Positions 41,053 through 42,425 of a stretch of DNA of 64,000 bases are shown one piece after another (the first letter of the stretch is position 1; each line of letters opens with the position of its first letter). Both the position numbers and the translations under genes were made by a program. The notes beneath the pieces were generated by a model. That model made no database searches. It was not told the origin of the DNA and saw nothing but the letters and a program-made list of their open reading frames with translations. This stretch comes from Dictyostelium discoideum (Eukaryota): positions 3,616,001 through 3,680,000 of the forward strand of contig CM000153.2 in NCBI GenBank assembly GCA_000004695.1, given 5' to 3'.

Positions 41053-41297
41053 TATTTTTATTTTATTTTTTTTTTTATTTGTTTCGATATTGGCTTAATT
41101 TGTAAATAACTTCATGTACACCAACGATATGACAAATTAAAATTGGGTCATTGCGATGGTGTTAAGAGATGTTTTATAGGCTCAGGGTTTCTAATTAGAA
41201 AATAAATCAGAAGTCAATAAAATTTCTTCAACTGGATCTTGGTGAAACGAAAGTGGTCTAATTTAATTATTTTTATTTATTTTTATGGAAGCGGGAA

Positions 41298-41331
<34 letters not shown>

Positions 41332-42425
41332 ACCTCAACCAATTAGGCAGTGTCTGAGTTTTATTTAATTTTATTTTGGTAGTATTTAAAAATTCTTAAT
41401 TATTTATGTAATTAGTATTGAATGAACAATAATGAACTAAATGTTCTGGTACATAAGTTCTCATTAATTGTGAATTCCAAGAGTGACTAAATTTTTCTAG
41501 CTTTTTCATTATTTTCCAAGTGTAGTCTAAATGAGGGTCTTTATTTCCAATCTTCTTAAATGATCTATTACTTTTAAAACGAAAGTATGGCGGGTCTTGA
41601 CGGCTTCTGTTGTGCCGTACCGGGGTGTCATGTCGGCCGTTTGTGCCGTCGGATGGTTTTGAAAACTACCTCCCCAGATTCGATTATAGTATTATAATCC
41701 CTCATTTCGGAGTTTTTAATTGCGGTACTTATTGGTCTGGTTATACATGTCTGAGGAGATTTTTGCTTTAACCCATCAATATGAGCAGTGTTTATTACTT
41801 CCTACTCTTGATCTAGGTCCTCTATGTTTATTACAAGCCAACAGGATATCGAACCGTTGTCCTAGGGTGTGCGTCGGTATTTACCTATCAGTGCCCTTCA
41901 AAGCGGGAAATTTTTTTTTTTTTTGAATTGGATAACGCAATTATTGGTTGCTTCTCCTTGAGATGCTAGATCTCATTTATTTTAGTATTTTTACAGGGTC
42001 TCTAAAAGAGGGGTTAGTTTACTTTTTTTTTTTTTTTTTTTTGTTTCTAATTTTGAATTGTATTATTACTTTTGATTAAAACATCTTTTTTGTCCAAACT
42101 TTTTTCAAAAACTTTTTTTATTTTATCGTCTGGCGACAGTTTGGCGGGTCTTGAAGTTGATGGTGTGACGAATACCCAACCTCCACTCATACTATCGGTG
42201 AAACCTTAAGCCACTTTCGTGACCGACACTCGCTCTCATCTCTCGCGCCACTCACTCGCCATTCGTCTTTATATATATTTTTACTTTTATCGACTTACTT
42301 TGTGTGAGCGCGATACCCCCTGTCTCCTTCCCGTTACTTGAAGTGTCTCGCCAGTGTACCACACGTTTACTATTGCAGTGACTGACTAACCAACGGCTTG
42401 CACTATCAGGGCCAATAAGCGGGAA
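41053..42425 (-). mobile_element. Tandem array of at least three short poly(A)-terminated retroelement units in minus orientation (U2 42425..41914, U1 41913..41293, U0 41292..~41053), head-to-head with the tRNA-Tyr gene. Probably TRE5-type (upstream tRNA-targeting) module-only derivatives.
   Basis: On the minus strand each unit begins ATTTCCCGCTT and ends in oligo(A), seen as 14-36-nt T-runs on plus at 41293-41328 and 41914-41927. U1 and U2 share an internal TCAAGACCCGCCA motif, have atypically GC-rich bodies, and carry no long ORF. The array's 5' end lies 33 bp from the tRNA start. The family name is recalled, not tested. Confidence 0.5.

Follow-up and report, generated by a model that had tools for sequence, protein, structure and literature searches.

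Between the gene cadA and a tRNA gene on chromosome 4 of Dictyostelium discoideum AX4 lies a head-to-tail array of two short, non-coding retroelements of the TRE5 type, very probably formed by two separate target-primed reverse transcription events that struck one and the same nucleotide, 42 nt upstream of tRNA-Tyr. The array was analysed within a stretch of 64 kb (hereafter the window; positions without a locus name refer to it) with a G + C content of 0.245, and it runs away from the tRNA on the minus strand. Structures of this kind, TRE-TRE tandems, are already known; in this one the target site was reused. A preliminary description, made from the sequence alone, had proposed three retroelement units sharing a 5' terminus. 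Units 1 and 2 of that description are evidently real and independent elements, "unit 3" falls away as host DNA on its G + C content and orthology, and the shared terminus has to be given up. For comparison, TRE5-type loci in other assemblies were reached via open reading frame 2 (ORF2) homologues of the TRE3 element in the window, and cadA loci via the cadA protein cluster; loci are referred to by L numbers.

The repeated motif is a target site duplication

The 64 kb contain three exact copies of the motif ATTTCCCGCTT, each on the minus strand (42427-42417, 41911-41901 and 41299-41289). The second copy stands directly after an A14 run and the third after A28 and a T, without a spacer, as the preliminary description had correctly noted; it had taken the motif itself for the 5' end of the elements. 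The motif is evidently a host target site duplication of 10-13 nt and not an element terminus, because three comparisons identify it as host target sequence: a relative of the elements at locus L004, the same locus in other strains, and the sequence that follows the third motif.

At L004 (D. cf. discoideum) a full-length element starts at 1631 with GGTGGGCCCCGATAGTGCA, which aligns with the starts of unit 1 (ATTGGCCCTGATAGTGCA) and unit 2 (TGAAGGGCACTGATAGG). This element is preceded by the 13-mer AATAATTAGAAAG, without ATTTCCCGCTT. The 13-mer is found at L004 1618, 8172, 8735 and 8780, the later three copies directly after the poly(A) of three successive elements, so that the repeat pattern of L004 reads as the pattern of the window, built from another, locus-specific sequence. 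A canonical TRE5-A in L002 has yet another duplication of 13 nt (CAAATGATTTTCA), and no TRE5 5' end among the samples from L001, L002, L010 and L011 starts with ATTTCCCGCTT.

The target site duplications between units that the preliminary description had suggested looking for were thus found. They measure 10-11 nt for unit 1 and 12-13 nt for unit 2, with tails of A14 and A28, respectively. The older duplication of 12-13 nt also takes in the T at 42428 and perhaps the A at 42429. Between the first base of unit 1 (42416) and tRNA +1 (42459) there are 42 nt; the corresponding distance in L004 is 43 nt, and in L002, where the tRNA gene is tRNA-Asp, 47 nt. The spacing of 33 bp given before does not hold: the distance from the tRNA to the first motif is 31 nt, and the start assigned to the array (42425) lies 2 nt inside the motif. 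This spacing seemed short for TRE5 only because the duplication had been taken as part of the element; the element bodies begin 42 nt from the tRNA, within the 37-211 bp upstream of tRNA genes at which the TRE5-A elements of the reference genome are found (PMC5391098).

The same locus in other strains

Locus L005 carries the same array (99.8% identity) and was therefore uninformative. Neither of the two units nor the downstream TRE3 is present in L006 and L007, which both carry the label D. discoideum; their slot between cadA and the tRNA gene carries other, mostly 5'-truncated insertions. The junctions of these insertions all read (A)TTTCC[A/T]TAAAA, with 2 copies in L006 and 5 in L007, and this repeat (TTTCCATAAAA) is the allele of the host sequence in AX4. 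No empty AX4-type site was present at the cadA loci L008 (D. cf. discoideum) and L009 (D. citrinum), which are too diverged and have other insertions, an LTR (long terminal repeat) element and TRE5-A-like fragments.

Past the third motif, the window can be aligned to the 3' flank of cadA in L006 and L007 (81-82% identity over ~265 nt), and the segment described as unit 3 is therefore evidently ordinary host DNA and not a retroelement. The G + C content of 41288-40979 is 0.232, which is the level of the host. The oligo(A) that had been taken as the end of unit 3 is an A-rich stretch, present at the orthologous position in strains without the elements.

Further observations were made at these loci. 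In L008 the slot upstream of the tRNA (5140-7440; D. cf. discoideum, ACTFIY) holds an apparent LTR-type element and not a TRE5, with direct repeats of ~250 bp at both ends and an ORF of 528 aa. Part of the cadA flank (window 41241-41201; L006 ~6205-6165) is an old and diverged duplicate of the tRNA 5' end with its upstream flank, reading GCCGGTTGATGAAATT..TGGCCTCTGATTT in L006 and L007 versus GCCGGTTGATGAATTTCAAAATTTTTTTGGCCTCTCATTT at the proximal position; a very long, ancient target site duplication may have this copy as its distal half. Extremely 5'-truncated TRE5 insertions, consisting of 11-17 nt plus poly(A), were seen in L007 (6590-6500) and L004 (8748-8779). They read GTACCCAATTC-A9 and ACCAAACTTTCCAATTC-A16, each bounded by a regenerated target site. 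Finally, a poly(A)-tailed insertion of ~190 nt in L007 (6745-6560) starts with GGGGGAAGCCGTTG, ends in ..CGCAACCAATTC-A12 and contains a long perfect hairpin (AAACGGGCCCGGTG...ACGGGCCCGTTT). It is another short non-autonomous element of the TRE5 type.

Composition of the two elements

Units 1 and 2 each have their own 5' end and poly(A), and are not internal parts of one full-length element. Together with their TRE5-homologous 3' ends, the distance to the tRNA, the orientation, the poly(A) and the target site duplications mark both as TRE5-type insertions, and the modules that make them up evidently are those listed in Table 1. X and Y denote the two parts of a 5' module that is discussed below.

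Table 1. Features of the array and its surroundings (window positions)
Feature	Position	Strand	Remarks
cadA (calcium-dependent cell adhesion molecule 1)	40149-40978	+	two introns
Host DNA, cadA 3' flank, including the former "unit 3" (41053-41288)	40979-41288	-	orthologous in L006/L007
Target site duplication copy 3, TATTTCCCGCTT	41289-41300	-	13 nt if A 41301 is included
Unit 2, older, distal, 600 nt; internally deleted non-coding TRE5-type retrocopy	41301-41900	-	own 5' end, A28 tail, flanking target site copies
Unit 2 A28 tail	41301-41328	-	
Unit 2 tail: ~55 C-terminal codons of TRE5 ORF2 (..KIMKKLEKFSHSWNSQLMRTYVPEHLVHYCSFNTNYINN-stop, frameshift) and 67-nt 3' untranslated region (UTR) ending TTGGTTGAGGTCAT	41329-41575	-	
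Unit 2, final 25 nt of Y, TCAAGACCCGCCATACTTTCGTTTT (rest of Y missing)	41576-41600	-	aligns with L004 2178-2202
Unit 2 head, 5' terminus TGAAGGGCACTGATAGG and X, G + C 0.44	41601-41900	-	91.7% to L004 1668-1942
Target site duplication copy 2, TTTCCCGCTT	41901-41910	-	preceding A 41911 is duplication or tail
Unit 1, younger, tRNA-proximal, 506 nt; chimeric non-coding TRE5-type retrocopy	41911-42416	-	own 5' end, A14 tail, flanking target site copies
Unit 1 A14 tail	41911-41924	-	
Unit 1, 3' 98 nt of TRE5-A-type C-module, ends CCAATTC	41925-42022	-	also matches L002 7670-7769
Unit 1, last ~90 nt of TRE5-A-type B-module	42043-42132	-	94% to L002 2511-2594
Unit 1 head, 5' terminus ATTGGCCCTGATAGTGCA and Y, without X, G + C 0.48	42133-42416	-	87% to L004 1936-2202
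Target site duplication copy 1, (T)ATTTCCCGCTT	42417-42427	-	motif missing from homologous L004 5' end
Host spacer, 31 nt	42428-42458	-	tRNA 5' end to first target site copy; orthologous spacer in L006 and L007
Target tRNA gene	42459-42542	+	ARAGORN; Rfam tRNA 57.8 bits; sole tRNA gene in window
X-Y join in L004, ..ACTGTCGC then AATATT			ORF1 codon 96
X-Y join in unit 1, ..ACTGTCGC then CAGACG			B-module end
X-Y join in unit 2, ..ACTTTCGT then TTTAAAAG			ORF2 C-terminus

The 5' terminus of unit 1 is 17 nt long, with only part of the head kept, and its Y module has an ATG at 42190 and ends with TCAAGACCCGCCAAACTGTCGC. The B-module part also matches the 3' B-C region of L002 (7512-7781). It is followed by an internal A20 run (42042-42023) that separates the B remnant from the C-module at the same place as the A-run of L002, and that is not an element end; from this run through the C-module the unit is 94% identical to L001 8629-8759. 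In unit 2 the X module contains a B-box-like GGTTCGATATCC (41855-41844). The tail of this unit has 72% nucleotide identity to the 3' end of ORF2 in L004 (7261-7440), and the nearest relatives of its C-terminal peptide are P0020 and P0135, of the L004/L010 family. By our reading, the 3' end of unit 2 aligns with the ..GTGAGGTTATT-An fragments of L001, L002, L004, L006 and L007.

The internal motif that had been described as common to the two longer units was recovered as TCAAGACCCGCCA, with two copies (42154-42142 and 41600-41588). The description of GC-rich bodies without ORFs also stands for both units, with the G + C content of their heads far above that of the host and no ORF >73 aa in either. 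To judge by this composition, both are non-autonomous and must have moved in trans. The suggested comparison with the modules of TRE5-A gave a divided result: unit 1 has the B-module end and, as the only one of the two, the 3' end of the C-module (42022-41925), whereas unit 2 has another 3' UTR, and the A-module of L002 (1993-2310) has no similarity to either unit.

Comparison of ORF2 separated four lineages: TRE5-A (P0025), P0023/24, P0027 (77% to P0023) and P0020 (50% to P0023), of which P0020 is intact only in D. cf. discoideum. The lineages P0023/24, P0027 and P0020 are given here by these handles instead of the published names TRE5-B and TRE5-C.

The 3' end ..GTGAGGTTATT-An, common to unit 2 and many 5'-truncated fragments, can form a hairpin of 6 bp whose arms co-vary between copies (CACCCA-AAT-TGGGTG, CACTCA-AAT-TGAGTG, CACTTG-TAT-CAAGTG and CACTCT-TA-TGAGTG; the copy of unit 2 is degenerate). 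It is located at window 41350-41329, L001 ~8360-8410, L002 ~8370-8425, L004 8120-8146, L006 ~6320-6276 and L007 ~6215-6170. This suggests a stem that may be recognised by the reverse transcriptase, by analogy with the stem described in the C-module of TRE5-A.

Formation of the tandem

In the mechanism that we favour, the host sequence before the insertions would have read ..CATATTTCCCGCTTCCATAAAAAT.. and unit 2 would have inserted first, with its 5' end toward the tRNA, duplicating (A)TATTTCCCGCTT. The tRNA-proximal copy of the duplication would then have been back at the preferred distance, because TRE5 integration is measured from the tRNA, via the TFIIIB/TFIIIC complex as described in the literature. 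Unit 1 would next have inserted at this proximal copy, duplicating (A)TTTCCCGCTT and pushing unit 2 outward. The outcome would be one motif copy in front of unit 1, a second where the poly(A) of unit 1 meets unit 2, and a third beyond the poly(A) of unit 2, with unchanged host DNA behind it. The order of unit 2 and then unit 1 would follow from the distance rule and was not itself observed. The appearance of a shared terminus is the expected outcome of very precise, tRNA-measured targeting of TRE5.

The 5' end of TRE5-A always faces the 5' end of the tRNA gene, and target site duplications and extra 5' nucleotides are usual for this element; a TRE that reaches an occupied tRNA gene gives rise to a TRE-TRE tandem, in which the resident element is not entered (PMC5391098). 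Repeated, tRNA-targeted integration of short non-autonomous non-LTR elements without ORFs into the same upstream slot, which the preliminary description had offered as one explanation, is retained.

Several observations weigh against this mechanism. The exact AX4 allele (ATTTCCCGCTTCCAT..) was empty in no sampled strain, the others reading ATTTCC[A/T]TAAAA, and the pre-insertion AX4 sequence given above was thus not observed. Furthermore, both events share the element-side boundary of the duplication (directly after ..CGCTT), which requires identical second-strand cleavage twice; such repeated cleavage is plausible given the loci discussed in the next paragraph, and is without a mechanistic explanation. 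Finally, a distance of 42 nt is just outside the window of 47+/-3 quoted for TRE5-A.

The array provides a clean natural example of this process. The L004 and L007 loci stutter likewise, three to five times, and the second-strand cleavage site is therefore reusable to the nucleotide. This bears on how the TFIIIB-bound complex positions the endonuclease.

The X-Y module

Possibly the only new feature of the array is the module X-Y. In L004, X and Y are contiguous (1631-2202, ~570 nt) and stand in place of the canonical 5' end. The sister copy L010 is 99.8% identical to L004 only downstream from L004 2202; upstream of the join it has A-like repeats, a poly(A) run, a B-like segment and 95 further ORF1 codons. 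X-Y was found in none of the 5' ends of TRE5-A (L002), P0023/24 (L001, L003), P0027 (L011) and canonical P0020 (L010). An apparent X-Y end in "unit 3" (AGACC..ACTTTCGTTT) was considered and dropped, as the host of other strains reads ACTTTAGTTA and the match is short.

In the L004 copy, X starts with a tRNA-related stretch. Its positions 11-67 are colinear with positions 7-64 of tRNA-Ala(AGC) (z = 6, with 0/200 shuffles as good), and the head has an A box one mismatch off the consensus and a complete B box. The AX4 head of unit 2 scored z = 1.5 against tRNA and keeps only the B-box-like sequence. The Rfam tRNA model had no match to the heads of units 1 and 2 or to the X-Y of L004, and in Rfam scans of the array and the L004 X-Y only the target tRNA was matched, with no rRNA, signal recognition particle RNA or RNase P RNA. 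Exact-pattern scans, with a 29-mer of Y in metagenome contigs and a 23-mer of X in bacterial and archaeal genome contigs, gave no matches, and matching four X-Y strings to the full text of the literature yielded chance primer matches only.

X-Y has no ORF >82 aa, and its folding (z = -2.2 versus shuffled sequences) is marginal and not evidence for a structured RNA. In L004 the ATG in Y is in frame with ORF1; a homology search with this ORF1, a query dominated by poly-N, scored nothing. X contains a T4 run (GTTTTC), and a T5 run (GTTTTTG) lies in what unit 1 keeps of the B-module; on the assumption that RNA polymerase III stops at T4-T5 in Dictyostelium the units would not be transcribable as a whole by this enzyme. 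Splicing was rejected as the source of the deletions in X or Y, because neither lost segment, with junctions read by eye, begins with GT and ends with AG.

In the alignment of the three copies, three different tails meet X-Y within ~1 nt of one X-Y position (Table 1). Template switching of a reverse transcriptase onto a discrete X-Y RNA is favoured as the source of the joins because of this coincidence, and we rate it as an even chance. Against this step count the small number of X-Y copies, three only, and the internal deletions in both AX4 copies, which a simple model does not predict. Taken further, X-Y could be a discrete, GC-rich RNA of ~570 nt with a tRNA-derived head with A and B boxes, repeatedly joined by TRE5 reverse transcriptases into chimeric retrocopies with interchangeable TRE5 tails, a tentative reading that we consider rather unlikely. 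If true, one near-full-length element would have an ORF1 that now starts inside X-Y, and the system would be either a short interspersed element (SINE) in the making or a chimera system like U6/L1. To our knowledge, no SINE has been reported for the D. discoideum genome. A true separate RNA or a SINE-like head would constitute a new class of non-autonomous element in a very well annotated genome, as well as a natural read-out of template switching by the TRE5 reverse transcriptase.

Alternatively, with the tandem formed in the same way, some unsampled or extinct TRE5 lineage (possibly TRE5-C) would have X-Y as its native 5' UTR or promoter, and unit 1, unit 2 and L004 would be recombinants or internal-deletion derivatives instead of chimeras with a separate RNA. 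This is a serious possibility, though short of probable. TRE5 elements are built from modules, and a deletion derivative, TRE5-A.2, is known (PMC3159450). The reading frame shared by the Y ATG and ORF1 in L004 fits a native leader, and the protein search turned up no intact copy of the ORF2-tail lineage of unit 2 in D. discoideum. In addition, the 5' UTR of the TRE3 in the window likewise looks richer in G + C than the host by eye. However, X-Y is missing from the 5' ends of all four sampled TRE5 lineages (L002, L001/L003, L011 and L010), random recombination in a longer element does not predict that three partners join within ~1 nt, and the tRNA-related start of X is unlike the A-module repeats of canonical TRE5.

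Other origins of the array

It is very improbable that a single event laid down both units, with the reverse transcriptase copying one RNA and then switching to a second, which the preliminary description had named as another origin of the tandem. The units are directly adjacent and the reverse transcriptases of long interspersed elements (LINEs) are known to switch templates (e.g. PMC2104539), but the poly(A) of unit 1 is separated from the start of unit 2 by a full host target copy of 10-11 nt, and the internal partner of a chimera normally has no full poly(A) and target site copy. Three non-coding units, each with a conserved 5' terminus ATTTCCCGCTT, arranged head to tail without target site duplications, are hardly credible, since this model accommodates the three exact motif copies, two of them right after poly(A), and the A-rich end of unit 3, but is contradicted by the locus-specific repeat in place of the motif at the 5' end of the L004 homologue, by the different, allelic host sequence at the L006/L007 junctions, by the orthology and host-level G + C content of unit 3, and by sampled TRE5 5' ends (L001, L002, L010 and L011) that do not start with the motif.

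Target tRNA gene and neighbouring features

The identity of the window is clear from the reverse transcriptase ORF at 44972-46987, which is 100% identical to DDB_G0285835 of AX4, on a contig of 5.45 Mb. The target tRNA gene, which has orthologues in L006-L009, was named Thr(tgt) by ARAGORN in bacterial mode; our reading by eye of the anticodon and intron points to tRNA-Tyr(GUA) with an 11-nt intron after position 37.

A TRE3-type non-LTR element is located 3' of this tRNA (within 42601-47574). It starts 58 nt past the tRNA 3' end, just beyond the external B box GGTTCGATTCC (42568-42578), and has ORFs at 42809-43882, 43998-44879 and 44972-46987 (RVT_1) and a poly(A) near 47090-47112, beyond which lie a second, short fragment and ~380 bp of other sequence. 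The whole block of 5 kb is missing from strain L007. The sole structural difference in the region between the window and L005 (GCA_054883475.1) lies inside this TRE3 (window 44708-44809 versus L005 6812-7114), where two BLAST segments of L005 overlap by ~300 bp; the distance from cadA to the FNIP gene is 404 bp less in L005, and the TRE3 was called there as a single ORF of 1221 aa, versus split ORFs in the window.

Further downstream, an inverted repeat of ~330 nt with 90% identity (47196-47526 and 55741-56073) bounds ~8 kb containing ORFs at 47997-49463 (FNIP-repeat protein) and 49650-50684, plus a long minus-strand ORF. The latter (50930-55336, 1468 aa) contains tandem repeats of 123 bp, or 41 codons (52746-55472), and the L006 orthologue of this gene has EGF_CA/cEGF Pfam matches. 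On the other side, one plus-strand ORF of 5047 codons (24380-39523) ends just 5' of cadA; its orthologues were called as proteins of ~5,400-5,540 aa, without a Pfam match.

Comparison with known systems

Unit 2 resembles tRNA-derived SINEs with LINE tails in being short and non-coding, with a B-box-like head, a non-tRNA body, a LINE 3' end and a poly(A). The term SINE-like, used in the preliminary description, is fair for this architecture, given the tRNA-related head with A- and B-box-like motifs and the LINE-derived tail, where the relationship of the head to tRNA was demonstrated in the L004 copy only. Unlike in such SINEs, each of the three X-Y copies has another tail, unit 1 lacks the tRNA-related part, and transcription by RNA polymerase III would end at the T4-T5 runs within the units, if the threshold assumed for Dictyostelium applies.

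With the U6/L1 chimeras of mammals and MINE-WEIRD of Magnaporthe (PMC2104539), the units have in common a 5' partner with fixed ends, joined to 5'-truncated LINE 3' parts of variable extent, and one target site duplication and one poly(A) for the whole. Fixed ends of the partner combined with variable LINE tails are characteristic of chimeras made by template switching. They differ in that X-Y (~570 nt) matches no Rfam RNA, that two of the three copies have internal deletions, and that in L004 X-Y is joined to an almost complete, possibly still functional element.

Unit 1 shares with TRE5-A.2 and other non-autonomous TRE5-A derivatives (AB-ORF1-BC; PMC3159450) its succession of a B-module end, an A-run and ~98 nt of the 3' part of the C-module. 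Retrotransposition has been shown to depend on the part of the C-module that unit 1 retains. Like TRE5-A.2, unit 1 has no ORF2 and requires mobilisation in trans. In contrast to TRE5-A.2, it is without the A-module, the 5' B-module and ORF1, and its 5' 284 nt are an unrelated GC-rich Y module.

The closest counterparts of the array as a whole are the TRE-TRE tandems of the TRE5 family at Dictyostelium tRNA genes, described by the Winckler laboratory (PMC5391098). These, too, are located upstream of a tRNA gene with the 5' end toward the tRNA 5' end, have poly(A) and target site duplications, contain a new element beside and not inside the old one, and can have a TRE3 downstream of the same tRNA. 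Nothing essential sets the array apart: its distance of 42 nt is slightly below the mode of TRE5-A (47+/-3), and the exact reuse of one nucleotide makes the duplication resemble a shared terminus.

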